Source of the DNA: Escherichia coli
Lineage (GTDB): Bacteria; Pseudomonadota; Gammaproteobacteria; Enterobacterales; Enterobacteriaceae
Strand: one strand, 5' to 3'
NCBI RefSeq assembly: GCF_050920415.1
Contig: NZ_CP169309.1
DNA length: 64,000 bases
Numbering within the stretch: position 1 is the stretch's first letter; each line of letters opens with the position of its first letter. The notes under the pieces are model-generated. The model worked only from the letters and a program-made list of their open reading frames with translations, was not told the DNA's origin and searched no databases. Position numbers and translations under genes: made by a program. Shown piece after piece: positions 23,483 to 39,802 of the stretch.

Positions 23483-23552
23483 ATGAGAGGCACGGGAACT
23501 GCCGGACATAGTTGGTCTGATAAGCGAAGCGCATCAGGCAATTTCGCAAATT

Positions 23553-23610
23553 GCAGATAGTAAAAAAGCGCCTTTAGGGCGCTTTTTTACATTGGTGGGT
23601 CGTGCAGGAT
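23553..23610. repeat. terminator palindrome plus 18-nt copy of the tRNA-Lys 3' end (att-like direct repeat, copy 1)
   Basis: gcagatagtaaaaaagcgcctttagggcgcttttttacat followed by tggtgggtcgtgcaggat, identical to the first 18 nt of the lysV complement at 39727. Confidence 0.6.
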
Positions 23611-23707
23611 GACTCGCTTCGCTCGCCCTTCGGGCCGTCGCCGCGAGCGGCTCCGTTGTTTCGCTGCGCTCAACTCGAACCTGCTGCAGGTTCGAATCTT
23701 TGAGTAT

Positions 23708-23765
23708 CGCAGATAGCAAAAAAGCGCCTTTAGGGCGCTTTTTTACATTGGTGGGTCGTGCAGAA
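23708..23765. repeat. second tandem copy of the terminator/att-like repeat (island-proximal boundary)
   Basis: gcagatagcaaaaaagcgcctttagggcgcttttttacat followed by tggtgggtcgtgcag (15 nt of the tRNA-Lys 3' end); near-identical to copy 1, about 155 bp away. Confidence 0.6.
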
Positions 23766-23826
23766 TCCTTATTCAGACTCTAACCTTTTGAAAAATCAAG
23801 AGATATAACACTAACAACCATCACTG

Positions 23827-23851
23827 TGGGCCTAATTATAGGCCCATTTTT
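23827..23851 (+). terminator. hairpin plus T-run just inside the island boundary
   Basis: tgggcct-aattat-aggccca followed by ttttt on the plus strand. Confidence 0.4.
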
Positions 23852-23927
23852 GAAAGCTGCAAGTAAGAATTGATTTTGGTGATTTAAGTGCACAATTTTC
23901 AGGCAGCGCGGGAGTTGCAGCGGCATA

Positions 23928-24227
23928 TCAGGAGATCATTAACCCGGATTCACCTTCCACGATCACACCACCATGTTCGGTGGTATCTCCCATACGGGCA
24001 ACGGCTTTACCGTTAATTTTGAGAACCGTTGAACCGGAAACAATAGTGTCTTTGCTACCGCTACCTTTGCAGGTGAGCTTATCACCCACCAACGCCAGCG
24101 GAACACCATTATACGTAACAAAGGTCTGCTGACATTCACTGACCGGGCCACCAATATGTGGGCGGGGGCCGGGATCAACTTTCGGGCAGGTATGGTTATG
24201 TCCTTTGAGTACCACGGCTTTACTCAT
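23928..24227 (-). CDS. PAAR-domain protein (T6SS spike tip)
   Basis: ORF 23928..24317 trimmed to the ATG preceded by AGGAGA: 99 aa MSKAVVLKGHNHTCPKVDPGPRPHIGGPV...GVPLALVGDKL...GKAVARMGDTTEHGG, Gly/Pro-rich PAAR-like repeats; start overlaps the upstream gene stop by ATGA. Confidence 0.7.
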   Translation of the reverse strand: MSKAVVLKGHNHTCPKVDPGPRPHIGGPVSECQQTFVTYNGVPLALVGDKLTCKGSGSKDTIVSGSTVLKINGKAVARMGDTTEHGGVIVEGESGLMIS

Positions 24228-24982
24228 CGTCTGTTCTCCTGCGCAGTTTTTGTGAATATGTCCAGAAGTCGCCAGTAAGCATACTCCTGTTGTCCCAGAT
24301 TCAGGCAACCATACCACCGTGGATGCAGAGGATCATCAAAACAACGAAATCCGTCATAATATTGGGCTACTGCCAGTAGCACTTCGGCCTGTCCGCCGGA
24401 TTCATAGCGGGATAGCGCCCGCCTTGCACTAGCCATCAGTTGTCGGTATATATTTTCATATAGCTCAACTGTTGGCGAAAAAGCCGTTCTTTTTTCCACC
24501 GTATACAGGCGGGTGAAAATCTGACCACTCCCCAGCCAGGCATTGTGATATTGGGGGATAATGCAGTGAGGCGTATCCGGCCCCCAGGAATGTTTATAGT
24601 GTTCACTAAGCCAGTCAACAGACCAGTCATCTTTATGTGCTATCAGGTATGCAGGTATAGTCTCATCTTGCGGGGATGTCTTTGCACTAATGTAGTGTTC
24701 AACAATTTTCTGCAATTCCGTATAGCGGACATCCTCCATAAAAAACGATCCCAGGCACAATCTGGCACTGGCAATATGTATAGCAAGCAATTGATCAGGA
24801 ACTTTTTGAGTCTCAGTCCATTGATAGCTCTGTCTGATTAATTCATCAATAGCGGATGCGGGAAGCTTTCTGTCGGTAATAACCTTACCAAAGCGGTTTA
24901 CCAGCCAGACGCGGCCCTTTTTCAGAAATTCCATCATCCGGTGCTCCGCCAGACTACGGTAAGTTGCTTCTGTTATCCTCAT
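24224..24982 (-). CDS. hypothetical cytoplasmic protein, 252 aa (T6SS operon member; immunity candidate)
   Basis: Intact ORF with GGAGAG RBS about 9 nt upstream of the ATG; no TM segment or signal peptide; position only. Confidence 0.55.
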   Translation of the reverse strand: MRITEATYRSLAEHRMMEFLKKGRVWLVNRFGKVITDRKLPASAIDELIRQSYQWTETQKVPDQLLAIHIASARLCLGSFFMEDVRYTELQKIVEHYISAKTSPQDETIPAYLIAHKDDWSVDWLSEHYKHSWGPDTPHCIIPQYHNAWLGSGQIFTRLYTVEKRTAFSPTVELYENIYRQLMASARRALSRYESGGQAEVLLAVAQYYDGFRCFDDPLHPRWYGCLNLGQQEYAYWRLLDIFTKTAQENRR

Positions 24983-25014
24983 GACTTCAGCCTCTCCCTT
25001 ACGCTATTGCAACA

Positions 25015-33253: not shown

Positions 33254-34281
33254 AAAACGACACGCCCGATAGCGGAAAACGGAATGAGACACAGGCTCTG
33301 CGTGATGCCTGCTACGGCAATTTTTTTGCTGTCACCGATCTGCTGTACCGCAGTCGTGGCGATGCCATTTCACTGAGAACGGAACCGGAGCAGGAAACGG
33401 TTCATTTTCGTGCCAGTCCTGACATCGCGTTTCCCCTGCGGGATATTGAATCGCTGGAAAAAAATACCGCCGATCAGTACGTAATGACCACCCGATTTAT
33501 GGGGTTATCCGGCAGTTCATCACCATTGCCGGGTTACTATCTGGATGAGATGGCCTGGGTGCAGGCACAGGAAGGCGGCAGCACAACGGCGGATTTCCTG
33601 AACCTCTTCACCCACAGGTATACGCAATTTTTGTACCACATCTGGCGAAAATACCGCTGGTATATCAGTTTTCGTAATGGTGGAACGGATAAGATCTCAC
33701 AGCGGATCTATGCGCTTATCGGGCTGGGCAACCCGCGTGTACGGGAACGGCTGGATATCTGCCACAGCAGGCTGCTGGCTTACGCCGGAATATTATCCGG
33801 CCCCGGACGTTCACCGGCAATGATCTGCGATCTGATCGCACACTGTTTTGATCTGCATGATGTCAGACTGGAAAACTGGCAGTTTCGTCGGGTGGCTATT
33901 CCACCTGATCAGCAAACCCGGCTGGGAAGGTGTGAGCCGGATGCCGAAGGGAAGATGCAGGGTAAATCGGTGCTGGGCGTTAATTTTGTTCTCGGCTCGC
34001 GCGTACCGGATTACAGTGGGAAATTTATGTTGTGTATCAGTAACCTGTCACTGCCGCGATATATGGCCTTTTTGCCCGACGGTGAGGAATACCTGGCGCT
34101 GACCACCTTCGTGGCTTTCCTGTTGCGCGATCAGTTTGCCTGGGAGCTGCGGTTAAGTCTTGTGCCAGAGCAAATTGGTGGAATGCGGCTGGGGGATAAG
34201 AGAAGCTCTCAACTGGGGAGAACCAGTTTTATTGGTAAGCCGCCACGCGAACCCTTTGTGACCATACGGGTCAGGGGATAA
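33217..34281 (+). CDS. tssG: T6SS baseplate subunit TssG (ImpH/VasB family)
   Basis: 354 aa overlapping the tssF 3' end by 37 nt; conserved FMGLSGSSSPLPGYYLDEM block typical of TssG. Confidence 0.8.
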   Translation: MEGKNRSVPPDVENDTPDSGKRNETQALRDACYGNFFAVTDLLYRSRGDAISLRTEPEQETVHFRASPDIAFPLRDIESLEKNTADQYVMTTRFMGLSGSSSPLPGYYLDEMAWVQAQEGGSTTADFLNLFTHRYTQFLYHIWRKYRWYISFRNGGTDKISQRIYALIGLGNPRVRERLDICHSRLLAYAGILSGPGRSPAMICDLIAHCFDLHDVRLENWQFRRVAIPPDQQTRLGRCEPDAEGKMQGKSVLGVNFVLGSRVPDYSGKFMLCISNLSLPRYMAFLPDGEEYLALTTFVAFLLRDQFAWELRLSLVPEQIGGMRLGDKRSSQLGRTSFIGKPPREPFVTIRVRG

Positions 34282-34616
34282 AGCCTGTACTGGCAATTGT
34301 TCCGGCCTGCGCTTTGCGATCCGTCCTTCCAGAAAATCACTTGCCACCTTTTATGGGTCATTGTATCGTTGCGCCGCGTCTGCAAAATCAGGCGTCGGGA
34401 TTGGTCTCCCGGTTATAACTCGTTGACGGCATATGACATTTCTGTGTCATTTCTGTGCCGTGCGTTCGGCTGCACTTCTATGGTGGGGCCGGGTGGGGGC
34501 GTTGAAAGACGCGCCGGTTCCCAACGAGACCGGTAAGACCAACTCCGTCCGGTTCCACCACCCGTAAGATTGGTCTCTTCAGTGGTGGAAAATATATTCT
34601 CGTTGGAGGCCACATT

Positions 34617-35078
34617 ATGGCTGTTATTTCTGTTCATAAAGACGATTTACTTACCATCCCCTTCAGTGCCGCTACTGATTTCACCGATCTGGCTGCTCAC
34701 TGCGATCGCTTCGCCCAGACCCTGATCGAATGCCACAATCCTGCGCTAAAAATGGCGCTCTGTGGCAGGCTTAATACCTGCCTTGCACTGTTGCGGCCCA
34801 CGCTGAACGAGCCGATCCCGCCGCATCTGATTGACGGTTTTATTACGAATGATTTTCCCGATGTTTCACCCGGTTTTGAACCTGATGCAGAATCACTCTG
34901 CGATTACTGCCTGGCGCTGACACAGATACTGAATGGTCACTCACTGTTACCTGAAACCGAAACCACGCTGACCGGGCTGCTGTGCGAGCTGGTCTGGTAT
35001 TTTGCTGACAGTCTGAAAGCCCCGCACTGGATACGTACCGCTGACGGCGTACAGGTTATCGACGGGAGGCCAGCATGA
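34617..35078 (+). CDS. hypothetical protein, 153 aa, translationally coupled to the Ner-like gene
   Basis: Intact ORF; stop overlaps the next gene start (ATGA); no recognisable domain. Confidence 0.45.
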   Translation: MAVISVHKDDLLTIPFSAATDFTDLAAHCDRFAQTLIECHNPALKMALCGRLNTCLALLRPTLNEPIPPHLIDGFITNDFPDVSPGFEPDAESLCDYCLALTQILNGHSLLPETETTLTGLLCELVWYFADSLKAPHWIRTADGVQVIDGRPA

Positions 35079-35329
35079 TGCAGCCGGACTGGCATCCCGC
35101 TGATATTATCGCGGGACTGAGAAAACGGGGGACATCGCTGGCTAAGGTGTCCCGCAGCGCGGGACTGGCGTCCGCCACGCTGGCAAACGCGTTGACCCGT
35201 TCGTGGCCGCGCGGCGAAAAACTCATTGCGGATGCGCTGGAAACATCACCGGAAATTATCTGGCCCTCCAGATATTTCGATAATCAGGGCAACCGCATTG
35301 TAAGACTTATGCGAGAGCGGCGCTCCTGA
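35075..35329 (+). CDS. Ner/Nlp-family small DNA-binding protein
   Basis: 84 aa; DWHPADIIAGLRKRGTSLAKVSRSAGLASATLANAL resembles the Mu Ner / E. coli Nlp (SfsB) HTH family. Confidence 0.7.
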   Translation: MMQPDWHPADIIAGLRKRGTSLAKVSRSAGLASATLANALTRSWPRGEKLIADALETSPEIIWPSRYFDNQGNRIVRLMRERRS

Positions 35330-35365
35330 TGGCAGAAGCGTCAGATACAAGGTTACGGTAAAATA

Positions 35366-35409
35366 TCTCCCGGCTCTCTGCCTGCTTCTGCTGGCAGAGA
35401 GCCGGGAGA
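35366..35409 (+). terminator. strong stem-loop downstream of the Ner-like gene (17-bp perfect stem, no U-tract)
   Basis: tctcccggctctctgcc / ggcagagagccgggaga inverted repeat with about a 10-nt loop. Confidence 0.4.
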
Positions 35410-36219
35410 AGACAAGCGAAGCGCGGCAGTTTTTCAGTCACGAAGTAAGCAAACAATCTTTTAAACGCAAAAAACGTTTTTTCTTTCTGCGCCAGAAATA
35501 ACGGTGTAATCTCCCTCCTGCACTATGCCTTCGGGCACCCTTTGGCTTCATGGTCTGCAAGAAGCCCCTGATTTATCAGGACGACCAGCCCTTGCTACCG
35601 GTACGACCTCCGCAATACCGGAACGCGAAAGCGTTTGAGGCGAAGTAATTACACACCGGACAGCCCCATCGTCATCGTTTTACCGCAACGGCCTTCACTG
35701 GCTGCAAGGTTTCTCTTTGCCGGAATTTCTCCGGCCTGCTTATCCCCTGCTGATGACCAGCGCCTTTTACATGACGGGCTGCGGCCTGCATTGCCGTCAG
35801 GCTTTGCTGCCGCGTGACCGTTAATCTACCAGACTGTTAATTTTCGAATACTGCACCAGAAACGCAATGTTTACCCCTTGCACCAGACGAGGCGTCACTT
35901 TGATCGCGTCAGCGAAAAAGCAAAGTGACGCCGCACAACTCACCGCCGCAAGCCGCGCCAGTTCTGGCCTGCGCCCTGTTTCCGCCGTCTGACATGCCCT
36001 TTGGGGCCGTTGTCAGCTCAGAGTAAAGGAGAAAAAGATCGATACCGAGGGGGGCACGACGCCCCGGAGACACCCCTGCTTCGTCAGGCAGTCTGTACTG
36101 CGTACAGCCTGAAACTCCCTAAACCTCAACAAACTGCCACTCCGGCGTGAAGGTATCGTTCTGGCGCAGCCAAAAAGCACACGCCGGAGACTGTTTGTTT
36201 TTGTTGTCAGGGGAGAGTC

Positions 36220-37104
36220 ATGAGCAAATTAAGCAGTGAAATGAAGGCGCTGGCGAAGAAAGCGGGCGGCAGCTTCAAAACGGTGAATGATCGTATTCAT
36301 GCCACGAAGCGGTTCAGCCAGCATTTACGCGAACTGAATATCCAGATCCAGCGGGTGGAGCAGATCAAAGTTCGCCATATCGAATGCTACATTCAGGAGC
36401 GGCTGGAGCAGGATATTGGTTTACGCACGCTGCAAAACGAAATGGCGGCGCTGCGCTCCGTACTGAGACTGGCGGGACGCCGACAGGTGGTGGAGCATCC
36501 GCGCCTGACCAATAAGGCGCTGGGGCTGTCAGGCGCTTCGCGCAACGGCACGCGCCGCGCCATTACGCCGGAACATTATGAAAAAGTGATGGAGAGCGCC
36601 CGTGCACAGGATGCGGGGCTGGCGGCAGCGGTGGAGATTGCGCGGCTGATGGGATTACGCTCGCAGGAGGCGGTACAGAGTTCACAGTCGCTGAAAACGT
36701 GGCTGAAAGCCATTTCCCGCGGCGAAACCCGGCTGAAAGTGGTGTTTGGCACCAAAGGCGGGCGTCCACGTTACACAACGATCCTGGACGCTGGTGCAGT
36801 CAGAAAGGCGGTGGAAAACGCGTTACCGATCGCCAGACAGCGCAATGGCAGGCTGATCGACAGGCCTGACCTCAAAACAGCGCTGGAGAGCTGGCACAAA
36901 CAGGCCATTAAGGCGGGACTGAAGGGGGAATTTTCCCCGCACTCACTGCGTTATGCATGGGCACAGGACGCGATCCGTTATTATCTGGCGCAGGGATTCA
37001 GCGAAAAAGAATCCCTGGCGCTGACGGCAACGGATCTGGGCCACGGCGACGGTCGCGGCCGCTGGGTGAAACAGGTGTACGGCTACCGCTGGAAGGAGGA
37101 ATAA
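36220..37104 (+). CDS. tyrosine recombinase (phage integrase family)-like protein, 294 aa
   Basis: Catalytic-residue pattern consistent with tyrosine recombinases: GLRSQEA (box I Arg), HSLRYAWAQ (HxLR), C-terminal VYGYRW (Tyr). Confidence 0.6.
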   Translation: MSKLSSEMKALAKKAGGSFKTVNDRIHATKRFSQHLRELNIQIQRVEQIKVRHIECYIQERLEQDIGLRTLQNEMAALRSVLRLAGRRQVVEHPRLTNKALGLSGASRNGTRRAITPEHYEKVMESARAQDAGLAAAVEIARLMGLRSQEAVQSSQSLKTWLKAISRGETRLKVVFGTKGGRPRYTTILDAGAVRKAVENALPIARQRNGRLIDRPDLKTALESWHKQAIKAGLKGEFSPHSLRYAWAQDAIRYYLAQGFSEKESLALTATDLGHGDGRGRWVKQVYGYRWKEE

Positions 37105-37429
37105 CTGAATTCATGAATGGCGCAAAATAGTACGTTATTGTGTAATGACAGCAATCAGTCTGGCGCAGGGACCGGATGAAATAAAACAACCGGATACCTG
37201 CCGTTATCACTTAACAATATAGTGATAATATTGTTACTGTATGGCGAGTAAATATCAATAACCCAGACCTTCCTGCTTCATCAGTGTGTTTTTCTGGAAT
37301 ATTATAGTGATTACCCCTGTAATCACTCGAAACGTTCCCTATTGATAACAGGTGTTTTAATCGTTTTTACCGATACCACAGGACTGGGAAAATGTTAAAA
37401 TGCCAATTCACCAGAATTTCACATTAATT

Positions 37430-37920
37430 CTGGCGCAGGATTATATCTGAATAATTCTCTCCATGTTTTCCTGCATCCTGTGACATATATTGTATGCTCA
37501 CAGAATGTCTCATGATTTTATAAAAAATGCTGCGACAGTTTTTGACATCATTACCTGCTACATATAGATTAACAATCTTCGGTGCTTCATGTTGTTTTTT
37601 GCACTTTGTGATCATTATCAGGTGGTTAAAATACAATCTGGTGCAGACTGTCATGGCGCATTTCCAAATAAACTGGTTGCGCCAGAAAGGGAAAGGGTCA
37701 TAAAGGTTAAGGGGCAATAAGGGTAACAGCGCCTGACCGGAAAGGGCGGAAAACTAAAGGGCCAGAAACTGGCGCAGTCCTGAGTATTTTAAATCGCAGG
37801 ATGCTGGTGTAGATATCGGCTAATCCGAAATGGTGCAGGATTTTATCTCTGCGTATCTGGTGCGGTTCTTAAAGGTTGCAGGATATATTTTCATGATCAG
37901 GTTGTGGTGCAGATATTTTT
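37430..37920. repeat. array of iteron-like direct repeats (consensus about TGGTGCAGGATnTTATCT)
   Basis: ctggcgcaggattatatctg, tggtgcagactg, cgcaggatgctggtgtagatatcg, ggtgcaggattttatctctg, ggttgcaggatatatttt, ggtgcagatatttttg within about 500 bp of AT-rich ORF-poor DNA. Confidence 0.4.
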
Positions 37921-37972
37921 GCGTATTAATTGTTTTTTCCGTGAAATTATCGCTTATTGATAGATTTCCACC

Positions 37973-37998
37973 TGTTTTGATTTGCATGCAAATCAAAA
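37973..37998. promoter_or_regulatory. perfect 26-bp palindrome (candidate protein-binding site)
   Basis: gttttgatttgcatgcaaatcaaaac is its own reverse complement; a second dyad (aaattattcac-tg-gtgaataattt) lies at about 38045..38068. Confidence 0.4.
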
Positions 37999-38249
37999 CG
38001 GTCAGTTTCCTATTAATAAGGCGTTAATTAATAGGTTTTTACCCAAAATTATTCACTGGTGAATAATTTCGTACTATTTCCAATTAATAATAACAAACAC
38101 AATGGCAATACCTCTCAATACAAAAAAGCAGATCCCCGTCAATCAGGATCTGCTTTTCCATTTTTACAGAATTACATTATTTCTGACTCAGGCAGGCCTG
38201 TGTCACCAGGTATGGCTGATAACGGCTATTTCTGTTGCCATATGGAGCA

Positions 38250-39461
38250 CTATATTGCCCTTACAGTCACAGATGCCTCACTGATCTTCTGCCCCCACCA
38301 ATTCATCAGTTCCACACGCTGAACCAGGTAAACTGCGCGGTTGTAGGCAACACGTGTTGGATTTTCATCAATATGTGACAAAACTGCTTCCACCGCATCC
38401 GGCATAAATCCGGCTTCATGCAGCGCCGTACTGCCCAGCGCGCGGAAACCATGTGAAACCAACTCGCCGCCGTAACCCATCCGCCATAATGCCTTGTTGA
38501 CCGTCTCACTGTGCATTGGCTGGCTGCGTTTAACCCTGCCGGGAAAGACATACAGCGAATGCTCACTTAATGGCTTAAGCTGCGCCAATACCGACATTGC
38601 CTGTGGTGACAGTGGCACCTGGTGCTCACGCTTCATCTTCATGCGTTCAGCCGGGATAGTCCAGAGCCGTTTATCCATATCAATCTCACACCACATCGTT
38701 CCTGCGGCCTCAGCAGGGCGTACCAGGGTCAGGAGTTGCCATTGCAGCAATAACCGCGTCATGGGGCTTAAACAGGTTGTGTGGACCCGCTGCATGAGTT
38801 CCGGCAGACGCTCCGGGCGAATGGTCGGCATATGCTGCTTTTTCGGCTTCACGAATGCTTCATCAATGGTTGACGCCGGGTTTGCATCCAGCAGGCCTGT
38901 ATTAATGGCGAATTTCATGACCTCATTAATTCGCTGCGTCAGCCGGTGCAACGTCTCCAGCGTGCCACGCGCCCGTACAGGCTCCAGGGCGGAAATAAGC
39001 GTGTGCGCTTTCAGTTCTGTCACTGGCATCTGCCCAATGGCCGGGAACACATCGCGCTCCAGCGATCTCCAGATATCGTCTGCATAATCTTCGGAGATTC
39101 TGGTTTTCTTCACCGCGAACCATCTCGTCGCCACATTAATAAACAGGCTCTCCACCGCCAGCCGCTCCCGTTCGGCTTCCTCCTGCTCCAGTTTCTTTGG
39201 GTCAATACCTTTCACAAGCAGGGAAAGCTGTTCGGCGTGTAATGCGCGTGCGCTGGCAAGCGACATGGCAGGATAATGCCCGAGAGTGATGGTGGTTCGC
39301 GCAGTCGAATTTGGCCGTTTGTAACGAAAACGCCAGATCTTTTTACCGCTGGTTCTGACAAACAGGGTCAGCCCCTGCCCGTCAAACAGTTCGTAATCTT
39401 TATCAGAGGGTTTTGCTTTCTGGACTTCGCAAGCTGATAACGGACGGGTAAGAACAGCCAT
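38250..39461 (-). CDS. int: P4-type (tRNA-associated) tyrosine integrase
   Basis: 403 aa; N-terminal LSACEVQKAKPSDKDYELFDGQGLTLFV... block typical of P4-like integrases; gene ends 265 bp from the 3' end of tRNA-Lys. Confidence 0.9.
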   Translation of the reverse strand: MAVLTRPLSACEVQKAKPSDKDYELFDGQGLTLFVRTSGKKIWRFRYKRPNSTARTTITLGHYPAMSLASARALHAEQLSLLVKGIDPKKLEQEEAERERLAVESLFINVATRWFAVKKTRISEDYADDIWRSLERDVFPAIGQMPVTELKAHTLISALEPVRARGTLETLHRLTQRINEVMKFAINTGLLDANPASTIDEAFVKPKKQHMPTIRPERLPELMQRVHTTCLSPMTRLLLQWQLLTLVRPAEAAGTMWCEIDMDKRLWTIPAERMKMKREHQVPLSPQAMSVLAQLKPLSEHSLYVFPGRVKRSQPMHSETVNKALWRMGYGGELVSHGFRALGSTALHEAGFMPDAVEAVLSHIDENPTRVAYNRAVYLVQRVELMNWWGQKISEASVTVRAI

Positions 39462-39726
39462 ACAATCACTCCTTAAATGTCAGTTGAAAATGACAGTGAT
39501 TGAGTGGTGCAATATTTTGTTTTCTTGAAGTTTTTTCAGCAGGAAACTGAATATGGGCCTACAAGATTTCCACCGCCAGAAGCATAGGCCCATTCGTAGG
39601 CCCATTTGCTCTGGATTCCCCGAACCCCGGAGAGAAGCATACAGACGAAAAAAAACCGTATCCTGTTGACAGTGATACGGTTTTCTTACTTCCCCGGACT
39701 CTATGAGACATCCCAAGAATGTATGT

Positions 39727-39802
39727 TGGTGGGTCGTGCAGGATTCGAACCTGCGACCAATTGATTAAAAGTCAACTGCTCTACCAACTGAGCTAACGAC
39801 CC
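39727..39802 (-). tRNA. lysV: tRNA-Lys (anticodon UUU)
   Basis: Reverse complement reads GGGTCGTTAGCTCAGTTGGTAGAGCAGTTGACTTTTAATCAATTGGTCGCAGGTTCGAATCCTGCACGACCCACCA. Confidence 0.95.

Follow-up and report, generated by a model that had tools for sequence, protein, structure and literature searches.

An integrative genomic island at lysV of Escherichia coli with a type VI secretion spike and extra copies of the baseplate wedge subunits TssF and TssG

Introduction

What occupies the space between xapR and the tRNA-Lys gene lysV in Escherichia coli MFDS1022581, and why does DNA at this site encode two structural subunits of a type VI secretion system (T6SS)? An initial annotation of the locus, made from the sequence alone, had proposed an island of about 16 kb integrated at the 3' end of lysV. 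This proposal was borne out by repeats at both ends, by empty sites in other strains, and by the presence of the island DNA in only one of 5,426 complete E. coli genomes, namely the source genome. The stretch analyzed, hereafter called the window, comprises 64 kb of the chromosome of this strain (NZ_CP169399.1; the record coordinate equals the window coordinate + 1,479,196). Sequence comparisons identify window positions 23749-39726 as an integrative genomic island, which encodes a T6SS spike protein, VgrG, and additional copies of the baseplate wedge subunits TssF and TssG. The best explanation of the whole, which we consider probable, is an integrative island with T6SS accessory cargo, in which working wedge subunits are the preferred reading of the extra TssF and TssG. 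The features of the locus are compiled in Table 1.

Results

Table 1. Features of the lysV locus, in window coordinates
Feature	Position	Strand	Evidence or remark
RtT-like repeat, outside the island	23593-23718	-	Rfam RF00391, 51.6 bits (gathering score 45); begins with the 18-nt tRNA 3' end
Distal attachment-site repeat (TTGGTGGGTCGTGCAGaAT)	23748-23766		Chromosome-to-island junction inside the repeat
Two inverted copies of TAGGCCCA	23827-23846		Candidate arm-type integrase sites, distal end
PAAR spike-tip protein, 99 aa	23928-24227	-	Pfam PAAR_motif 1.7e-18; NCBIfam T6SS_PAAR_dom 5e-9, below the curated cut-off
Cytoplasmic protein, 237 aa (possible ORF start 24982)	24224-24937	-	Stop overlaps the PAAR start; no family match
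Cytoplasmic protein, 309 aa, about 35% GC	25015-25944	-	No family match; candidate immunity protein for the 341-aa protein
Candidate toxin, 341 aa	25947-26972	-	Invariant D184...E204-x-K206
Candidate T6SS effector, 443 aa	26972-28303	-	Directly after the DUF4123 gene; one hydrophobic segment, residues 300-329
DUF4123 adaptor/chaperone, 191 aa	28323-28898	-	Pfam DUF4123 1.5e-20; weak match to Tla1 (Tle1 chaperone)
VgrG spike protein, 690 aa	28895-30967	-	TIGR03361 600 bits (cut-off 186)
AT-rich divergent intergenic region vgrG/tssF, 438 bp	30968-31405		Presumed promoter region; consensus scan uninformative
TssF baseplate wedge subunit, extra copy, 615 aa	31406-33253	+	TIGR03359 equivalog 448 bits (cut-off 260)
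TssG baseplate wedge subunit, extra copy, 354 aa	33217-34281	+	TIGR03347 equivalog 312 bits (cut-off 143)
P1/P4-type antisense-RNA element (a1b1 target, isrK-like RNA, C4 RNA)	34363-34565	+	Rfam; between tssG and the 153-aa/Ner-like pair
Conserved backbone protein, 153 aa	34617-35078	+	53-94% identical in related Asn/Lys tRNA islands
Ner/SfsB-like helix-turn-helix (HTH) regulator, 84 aa	35075-35329	+	Pfam HTH_35 1.4e-32; PHROG 769 transcriptional repressor
EFASI RNA	36034-36162	+	Rfam RF02957 99.2 bits (gathering score 51.2), full length; 58 bp upstream of the Integrase_1 gene
Second tyrosine recombinase, 294 aa	36220-37104	+	Pfam Integrase_1 3.4e-59 and Phage_int_SAM_2 4.9e-40
AT-rich stretch, no convincing gene	37105-38249		Two near-palindromes, 37953-38020 and 38027-38088
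P4-type (PRK09692-class) integrase, 403 aa	38250-39461	-	NCBIfam PRK09692 521 bits (cut-off 434); 265 bp from lysV
Three copies of TAGGCCCA	39554-39604		Candidate arm-type sites, integrase-proximal end
Island-borne hairpin followed by U8	39644-39692	-	Inverted repeat; stands in for the native valU-lysV operon terminator
Proximal attachment-site repeat	39726-39744		Overlaps the lysV 3' end
tRNA-Lys(UUU), lysV	39727-39802	-	ARAGORN; last of a Val-Val-Val-Lys tRNA operon (three tRNA-Val genes beside it)
aa, amino acids; ORF, open reading frame; GC, G+C content.

The island is inserted at the 3' end of lysV

The end of the tRNA gene recurs on the far side of the island. According to the initial annotation, an 18-mer from the tRNA end, TGGTGGGTCGTGCAGGAT, is repeated at 23593 and, in a degenerate form, at 23749. 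Indeed, the copies at 23593 and 39727 were found to be exact and the copy at 23749 (TGGTGGGTCGTGCAGAAT) to contain one mismatch, and no further match with up to three mismatches is present in the 64-kb window. The chance expectation for such matches was 0.06, and none of 100 shuffled sequences reached three of them. The two ends of the island share 16 identical bases (23748-23763 and 39726-39741), and this repeat extends to 19 bases with one mismatch, an A at 23764 versus a G at 39742. The insert has a length of 15,978 bp and can be placed at about 23767-39744 or, equivalently, at 23749-39726. The comparison with K-12 and other E. coli that had been proposed along with the initial annotation revealed an empty site in K-12, 2015C-3108, and FDAARGOS_1253. 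In these three genomes the xapR-lysV locus is uninterrupted and all three rejoin cleanly at the repeat; in the alignment of the left junction, the match to the island-free loci ended only past 23766. The GC content varies from 0.34 to 0.58 within the island, versus about 0.50 in the flanks.

The gene next to the tRNA encodes a P4-type integrase, as had been proposed initially. The protein contains the Pfam domains Arm-DNA-bind_3, Phage_int_M, and Phage_integrase, and the ratio of non-synonymous to synonymous substitution rates (dN/dS) between the two known alleles of the island was 0.11 (dN/dS and dS between the alleles were calculated with our own Nei-Gojobori script). It is 72% identical to the integrase of an island of Escherichia sp. 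(L016) and about 35% identical to the integrases of islands at tRNA-Asn genes. The short motif TAGGCCCA occurs five times in the 64-kb window, and all five copies are located within about 170 bp of the island ends. Lys-type integrases in L016, L020, and L025 also have the motif nearby, and no Asn-type island contains it. The placement suggests that these copies are arm-type binding sites of the integrase.

A hairpin followed by a run of U residues starts 35 bases downstream of lysV, within the island. Its predicted folding energy is -24.1 kcal/mol (z = -4.2), and 0 of 200 shuffled sequences folded as well. The hairpin was missed by a consensus terminator scan because of its long loop and was recovered by folding.

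Together, the repeats, the empty sites, the rarity of the island DNA (1 of 5,426 genomes), the mosaic GC content, the intact integrase, the placement of TAGGCCCA, the island-borne terminator, a second allele with identical junctions, and a decayed form of the island (the latter two are described below) led us to the conclusion that the DNA was inserted. In the proposed mechanism, the P4-type integrase, acting at the TAGGCCCA arm sites, would have joined a site on the element to a 16-bp target made up of the final 15 nt of lysV and one adjacent base, and it may still catalyze excision. The sequence comparisons show that the insertion kept the tRNA gene intact, duplicated the core of 16-19 bp at both ends, and supplied a new terminator for the tRNA operon. 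The final 15 nt of lysV lie within the 16-bp crossover repeat, so that these bases may derive from the island or from the chromosome. The predicted attP junction of a circular form is TGTATGTTGGTGGGTCGTGCAGAATCCT, with the layout ...GAATGTATG-TTGGTGGGTCGTGCAG-AATCCTTATT....

No genes for conjugation, replication, or packaging were recognized on the island, and none of its 13 annotated proteins contains a relaxase or mating-pore domain; an oriT was not specifically searched for. Without transfer, replication, and packaging genes the island should be unable to move between cells unaided, and its transfer would rely on other elements or on recombination.

The island encodes a divergent spike and two wedge subunits of the T6SS

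Among the 13 core genes of T6SSs, the island contains only vgrG (tssI), tssF, and tssG, and thus it is not a complete cluster. The island TssF matches the solved TssF structure of enteroaggregative E. coli (6GIY_A) over its full length, TssG matches 6GIY_C, and VgrG matches solved VgrG structures across residues 31-575. The identity to the host's own proteins is 49% for TssF, 55% for TssG, and 52% overall for VgrG. The dN/dS values between the two E. coli alleles were 0.14 for TssF, 0.115 for TssG, and 0.065 for VgrG.

The core T6SS of the host is located about 2.6 Mb away on the same chromosome, next to yafV (L014; NZ_CP169399.1 4,105,000-4,127,000). It comprises hcp, tssB, C, E, F, G, tagH, tssJ, K, L, H (clpV), vasI, and tssA, and it has three vgrG genes with Tae4, M23-peptidase, and Tle1-type cargo. 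The variable region of this cluster is broken by mobile DNA: one vgrG is split by IS21, and the effector genes are interspersed with IS2, remnants of ISAs1, and a group II intron. Because the island has no genes for the sheath, the tube, the membrane complex, or the ATPase, firing must depend on the complete T6SS of the host.

VgrG and the PAAR protein would form the spike, and the DUF4123 adaptor most likely loads the adjacent 443-aa protein. The neighboring cargo proteins would likewise be loaded as toxins and fired by the resident T6SS. TssF and TssG would be functional parts of the wedge, with which a baseplate is built or adapted to surround the divergent VgrG of the island, the remaining parts being those of the resident system. 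That the two are working subunits matched to the island VgrG is a tentative interpretation, to which we give somewhat less than an even chance. A more far-reaching version is doubtful: vgrG, tssF, and tssG could together serve as a portable 'spike plus wedge' kit, in which the island supplies a new VgrG, new toxins, and the two baseplate proteins fitting this VgrG, and with which the resident T6SS assembles hybrid baseplates and fires a foreign spike that could otherwise not dock.

The cargo includes two very rare protein families

Four of the cargo proteins, with 237, 309, 341, and 443 aa, had no match in Pfam, NCBIfam, PHROGs, or PADLOC. No signal peptide was predicted for any cargo protein, and no known toxin domain was found in the cargo. 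A profile search of the 443-aa and 341-aa families against the sequences of the PDB yielded nothing meaningful. Both families are very rare. Among 5.8 billion proteins, the 443-aa family formed seven clusters and the 341-aa family six, and a profile search at full sensitivity found 14 representatives of the 443-aa family among 1.84 billion proteins. Homologues of the two proteins share the same source wherever a comparison was possible, their locus tags are consecutive in one Enterobacteriaceae genome, and a 341-aa homologue always adjoins a 443-aa homologue where the context is visible. In our reading, the spacing of the invariant residues D184, E204, and K206 of the 341-aa family resembles the PD-(D/E)xK nuclease motif.

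The two alleles of the island differ very unevenly across the cargo. Identity reaches 99% in the DUF4123 protein and in VgrG and 96% in the 237-aa protein, which has neither a hydrophobic segment nor a signal peptide and is possibly an immunity or accessory protein. The 309-aa gene is the most diverged (73% aa identity). The divergence peaks at 25500-26500 (60-67% nucleotide identity), a region encoding the C-terminal half of the 341-aa protein together with the N-terminal half of its 309-aa neighbor, and there is another peak halfway along the 443-aa gene. Such a pattern is usual for effector/immunity pairs, and, together with the gene order, it singles out the 341-aa protein as the best toxin candidate, with the 309-aa protein as its candidate immunity partner, and the 443-aa protein as a candidate client of the adaptor. 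The DUF4123 protein and the 443-, 341-, 309-, and 237-aa proteins were found in no other member of the module family described in the next section. The PAAR protein is 83-89% identical to the PAAR proteins of the modules of Salmonella salamae and L031.

The vgrG-tssF module recurs in several genera

In a search of 5.8 billion proteins, relatives of the island TssF formed a tier at 56-66% identity (plus the second allele at 96%), followed by core enterobacterial TssFs with at most 50%. In a neighbor-joining tree, the island-type TssFs formed a separate clade with a median identity of 0.60 within the clade and a highest identity to a core TssF of 0.54. Citrobacter sp. wls619 has both a core-type TssF (P0088) and an island-type TssF. 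The genomic context was inspected for every member of the tier on a usable contig (n = 12; Table 2); a scan of genome contigs with TssF, which reaches close relatives only, had returned two loci.

Table 2. Contexts of vgrG-tssF(-tssG) modules
Source	Locus	Setting
E. coli, two alleles	Window, L025-L028	lysV
Escherichia sp. MOD1-EC7003	L016	Short contig, no tRNA on the contig; Lys-type integrase
Citrobacter sp. wls619	L015	vgrG-tssF-tssG context
Salmonella houtenae	L017-L019	Next to yeeO, beside an Asn-type P4-like integrase; Rhs cargo
Salmonella salamae	L020-L021	Lys-tRNA cluster between nadA and pal
	L031-L032	The S. salamae site (nadA-pal Lys-tRNA cluster)
Enterobacter	L022-L023	tssF only, no integrase
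	L024	tssF only, no integrase
Gut-metagenome contigs	L029-L030	Rhs cargo
Public sequencing-run assemblies	L033-L034	Rhs cargo
E. coli O145:H28 RM13514	L035, NZ_CP006027.1 about 2,512,000-2,524,000	tRNA-Asn
E. coli E7-1N7	L036	tRNA-Asn

In all 12 contexts, vgrG and tssF are divergent neighbors, tssG comes next in all but L022-L023 and L024, and no other core T6SS gene lies within 10 kb. The gap between the two genes was 220-438 bp in all 11 modules that were compared, and the genes beyond vgrG vary. The VgrG core of the relatives in these 11 modules is 70-77% identical to the window copy, and its identity tracks that of TssF (r = 0.94, 55 pairs); the C-terminus of VgrG is merely 18-30% identical. 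The island of E7-1N7 is bounded by a 16-nt repeat of the 3' end of tRNA-Asn, which shows that Asn-type elements are discrete integrative islands as well. In RM13514, the cargo is cut by an IS3 element and the Integrase_1 gene is a pseudogene.

Working subunits or leftovers?

Alternatively, the island could be an ordinary carrier of vgrG and effectors in which tssF and tssG are inert leftovers of a once-complete T6SS cluster, from which a deletion on one flank took hcp, tssB, tssC, and tssE and another removed everything from tagH onwards. We regard this as unlikely, although the gene order speaks for it: vgrG divergent from tssF and tssG equals the host-type layout (vgrG-hcp divergent from tssB, C, E, F, G) minus hcp-tssBCE. 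However, TssF is intact in 11 of 11 translated modules and TssG in 9 of 11, despite TssF identities of only 56-66% between modules. In addition, the island-type TssF clade is monophyletic, and no examined member belongs to a complete cluster. The dN/dS values of tssF and tssG of 0.12-0.14 were measured at a dS of about 0.12, and an inert pair of genes would be unlikely to stay open over such a divergence.

Several observations count against working wedge subunits or against other parts of the main reading, and some of them favor inert leftovers. In Enterobacter (L022-L023) and in L024, tssG and the integrase gene have been lost and tssF is full length. In two of three S. houtenae strains (L017, L018), tssG is split into two ORFs or was not called, and tssF and vgrG are intact; TssF thus seems to be retained longer than TssG. 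When the 31 complete E. coli genomes with island-type tssFG were searched by blastn for a second, core-type tssFG, only 4 were positive, and core-positive hosts are therefore not enriched among the carriers. Most of the remainder appear to be O145:H28 or related strains and so probably represent one lineage. In about 25 complete genomes of Shiga toxin-producing O145:H28 strains, an intact vgrG-tssF-tssG module at tRNA-Asn is the sole tssFG detectable by blastn. According to published comparisons, O145:H28 strains have neither the OI-7 T6SS nor genes of T6SS-1 or T6SS-3 (PMC5567499, PMC9144400), so that the module can survive, at least temporarily, where no core system is present. Expression of the island TssF and TssG and their contact with host parts are presumed in the wedge reading. 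For the cargo, the proposed toxin and immunity roles are read solely from position and divergence, and the AlphaFold2 models of the 443-aa and 341-aa proteins, which have few homologues, were of low confidence (predicted local distance difference test scores of 45 and 46, respectively). With regard to mobility, the predicted attP junction, or a circular form, was not found in metagenome and viral contigs, which leaves excision possible, and no excisionase-like gene was recognized among the island genes.

If the wedge subunits do work, T6SS baseplates may mix resident and imported parts, which would bear on how newly transferred spikes and toxins become usable. If the 'spike plus wedge' version also applies, the composition of the baseplate would be a horizontally exchangeable layer of T6SS specificity, and the islands would constitute one family of T6SS satellites, built on a fixed frame with exchangeable effectors and exchangeable integrases for Lys or Asn tRNA.

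An RtT-like repeat at the distal end is native to the locus

The exact copy of the tRNA end at 23593 requires a separate explanation. It is the beginning of a 156-bp RtT-type unit (23593-23748), which consists of the RtT match and a second copy of the operon terminator (about 23706-23746), and a stretch of 61 nt is duplicated (23550-23610 and 23706-23766). In K-12, 2015C-3108, and IAI1, the unit is present without the island and is joined directly to lysV, and RefSeq annotates it as the small RNA RtT; many further strains with an empty site have it too. The order in K-12 and 2015C-3108 is xapR, terminator, 18-mer, about 130 nt, second terminator copy, and lysV. FDAARGOS_1253 does not have the unit, and thus the xapR-lysV spacer is polymorphic across E. 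coli for the 156-bp RtT-like unit. As the exact copy at 23593 belongs to an RtT-type repeat that is found at empty sites, it is not an end of the island.

These results revise the limits given initially, 23593-39802: the true insert spans 23749-39726, and the degenerate copy at 23749 is its distal end. The accompanying view that everything between xapR and lysV had been inserted was right insofar as the site is empty in K-12, and wrong for the RtT-like unit, which is native there. The opposite assignment, that the island ends at the exact repeat and that the RtT-like unit and the 23749 copy belong to the mobile element, could cite the perfect match to the tRNA end at 23593, whereas the 23749 copy carries one mismatch. 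It is nevertheless very improbable, because three island-free genomes carry the unit joined to lysV, because identity to the empty-site loci is lost only after 23766, and because the G-to-A difference recurs at the identical junction of the second island allele. For annotation, the lesson is that a repeat of a tRNA 3' end need not mark the boundary of an island, since RtT-type repeats can mimic attachment-site repeats.

The island is rare but possibly old

The flanks of the island were found in 5,425 of the 5,426 complete genomes. In public assemblies, the exact integrase protein was recorded in 138 blocks, always beside gltX and the tRNA operon where the flanks were returned. Three of the assemblies inspected (L005, L008, and L009) are clone-mates of the window strain, and a further one (L007) has identities to the window of 99.24% in the flanks and 99.75% in the island. 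A second allele of the island (L025-L028; TssF 96% identical) also resides at lysV in a different background, with an IAI1-type left flank and no xap operon. In L025, it has the same junctions as the window, including the G-to-A difference. The decayed form was found in a clone-mate (L006; GCA_053046425.1) with a deletion of 12.75 kb, equivalent to window 23714-36465, that runs from the RtT terminator into the Integrase_1 gene. The distal attachment site, all T6SS genes, and half of the second recombinase gene are gone, and only the integrase end of the island has been retained.

The dS between the two alleles was 0.09-0.13 and thus close to that of the flanking gltX gene (0.108). This similarity indicates that the island may have resided in the species for long, with infrequent retention, and need not have arrived very recently; independent acquisitions would be equally compatible with the sequences. 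It could also be taken to favor the notion that the DNA is ancestral at lysV and was lost from nearly all lineages without any insertion, with a residence as old as the split of the two backgrounds, but this is very improbable: a duplicated tRNA 3' end bounds the island with the integrase on the tRNA-proximal side, its GC content is mosaic, 5,425 of 5,426 complete genomes are without island DNA and the three empty sites inspected rejoin cleanly, the same frame occurs at other tRNA genes with other integrases and in other species, and empty sites already seen in outgroup lineages refute ancestry at the locus in our assessment.

Comparison with known systems

Islands at tRNA genes with P4-type integrases are well known, for example CP4-57 at ssrA, the pks island at asnW, and the high-pathogenicity island of Yersinia at asnT. 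The lysV island resembles them with respect to the integrase beside the tRNA gene, recombination within the tRNA 3' end, the far repeat, the empty sites, and the mosaic composition. It differs from typical representatives in its target lysV, its small size of 16 kb, the second recombinase, the EFASI RNA, the C4-type RNA, and the T6SS cargo. The island itself is a standard P4-integrase tRNA island at an unusual site, and its cargo is an apparently undescribed 'spike plus wedge' T6SS module. Full-text literature searches on lysV islands, on orphan or extra tssF/tssG, and on orphan vgrG islands in E. coli, in a scope that left out most subscription journals, yielded no account of this arrangement and no paper on lysV as an island site, and a prior description is possible.

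Auxiliary or orphan vgrG clusters include Aux1 of Vibrio cholerae, with the order hcp-vgrG-tap1(DUF4123)-tseL-tsiV1, and the vgrG islands of Pseudomonas aeruginosa. As in such clusters, the order in the island is vgrG, DUF4123 adaptor, effector, candidate immunity gene, and PAAR gene, and the core T6SS is located elsewhere. Unlike them, the module has tssF and tssG travelling with vgrG, resides on an integrase-bearing element with defined attachment sites, and has no hcp. Auxiliary clusters contain no structural core genes beyond those of the spike and the tube; the intact tssF and tssG break with this definition, and we therefore class the island as a variant. Orphan islands with hcp, vgrG, or PAAR genes have been surveyed (PMC13098142), and partial or split T6SS loci have been described in Klebsiella (PMC13367176). 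The Klebsiella loci likewise contain some and not all core genes; here, in contrast, only vgrG, tssF, and tssG are present, they duplicate genes of the host's complete cluster, and they are mobile and occur in the same form across genera.

Related islands are found at tRNA-Asn genes (RM13514, E7-1N7, S. houtenae) and at the lysT-type site of S. salamae. They share the order effectors, vgrG, and divergent tssF and tssG, followed by the genes for the 153-aa protein, the Ner-like HTH regulator, Integrase_1, and the P4-type integrase, and the tRNA gene. The Asn-type islands differ in the integrase (about 35% identical) and in the tRNA target. In both groups, the effector cargo is entirely different (Rhs or other proteins of unknown function) and TssF is merely 56-66% identical. 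As the backbone is conserved, the integrases are about 35% identical, and the effectors differ, the family keeps its frame and exchanges what lies at the two ends, namely the integrase and the effectors.

In phage P4 and in P1/P7, c4 immunity is based on a C4-type antisense RNA with upstream target-like repeats. The island similarly combines a P4-family integrase with a C4-type RNA and target-like repeats ahead of coding genes. Unlike in the P4 satellite, searches against PHROGs and NCBIfam recognized no primase/helicase, capsid-size (sid), psu/delta, or cos functions, and the PHROGs matches were confined to the integrases and the repressor-like HTH protein. Therefore, we rejected the classification of the island, as it stands, as a satellite phage, since the genes of P4 for replication and for exploitation of the helper were not recognized.

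tRNA islands and orphan vgrG clusters are routine findings; a small mobile element with its own TssF, TssG, and VgrG under purifying selection is not, and vgrG-tssF-tssG has been kept intact in Escherichia, Salmonella, Citrobacter, and Enterobacter. In addition, the island offers two very rare candidate toxin families and presents the orphan EFASI RNA and a recombinase of the Integrase_1 family in their natural context. The pair of Lys and Asn elements, with the same frame and a different tRNA specificity, should be useful for studies of the specificity of integrases and arm sites.

Backbone of the island

The region between tssG and the P4-type integrase gene contains RNA elements, a regulator, and the second recombinase. 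In the antisense-RNA element, the C4 RNA (RF01695) scored 68.1 bits (gathering score 45) and the isrK RNA (RF01394) 53.2 bits (gathering score 50); the c4-a1b1 match of 43.1 bits was under the gathering score of 46.7. In the Asn-tRNA relatives, a small 'ash family' ORF is annotated across the stretch of the C4 element. The 153-aa protein had no family match in Pfam, NCBIfam, PHROGs, or PADLOC. The Ner-like regulator scored 114 bits against the NCBIfam model of SfsB, below its cut-off of 150. A hairpin with 20-bp arms (95% complementary) and a 4-nt loop is located at 35366-35409, 37 bp past the stop codon of the regulator gene, and is probably the terminator of the Ner-like operon.

According to Rfam, as quoted in PMC12370729, EFASI has an unknown function and is found upstream of integrase genes in Enterobacteriaceae. 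Its frequent companion STAXI was not detected in the island even at E values up to 10. In the second recombinase, the motifs LRSQE, HSLRY, and VY are visible; its dN/dS was 0.16 and it is 62-97% identical in related islands. Inverted repeats flanking the cargo were considered as its targets and rejected, as only short pairs at chance level were present. The sole match to the Integrase_1 protein in IMG/VR was L037 (IMGVR_UViG_2534681697_000014). We rejected it as a virus carrying this gene, because it looks like an over-extended prophage call in which the edge of an Asn-tRNA island is joined to mtfA, tRNA-Ser, and a neighboring prophage.

The backbone, consisting of the C4-type RNA, the 153-aa protein, the Ner-like regulator, EFASI, and the second recombinase, probably regulates the element. 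From the C4-type RNA to just before the integrase gene (34358-38193), it is matched with about 85% DNA identity in 577 of the 5,426 complete E. coli genomes, always on the chromosome. Three examples were inspected; they lie beside tRNA-Asn genes, and their cargo is either Rhs-type or vgrG-tssFG. The 153-aa, HTH, and Integrase_1 proteins are 53-97% identical across the related islands, and the AT-rich stretch that follows the second recombinase gene shares about 85% identity with the Asn-tRNA islands as far as 38193. The source genome itself contains a second region that matches the backbone at 34282-39726, and this region may be another member of the island family.

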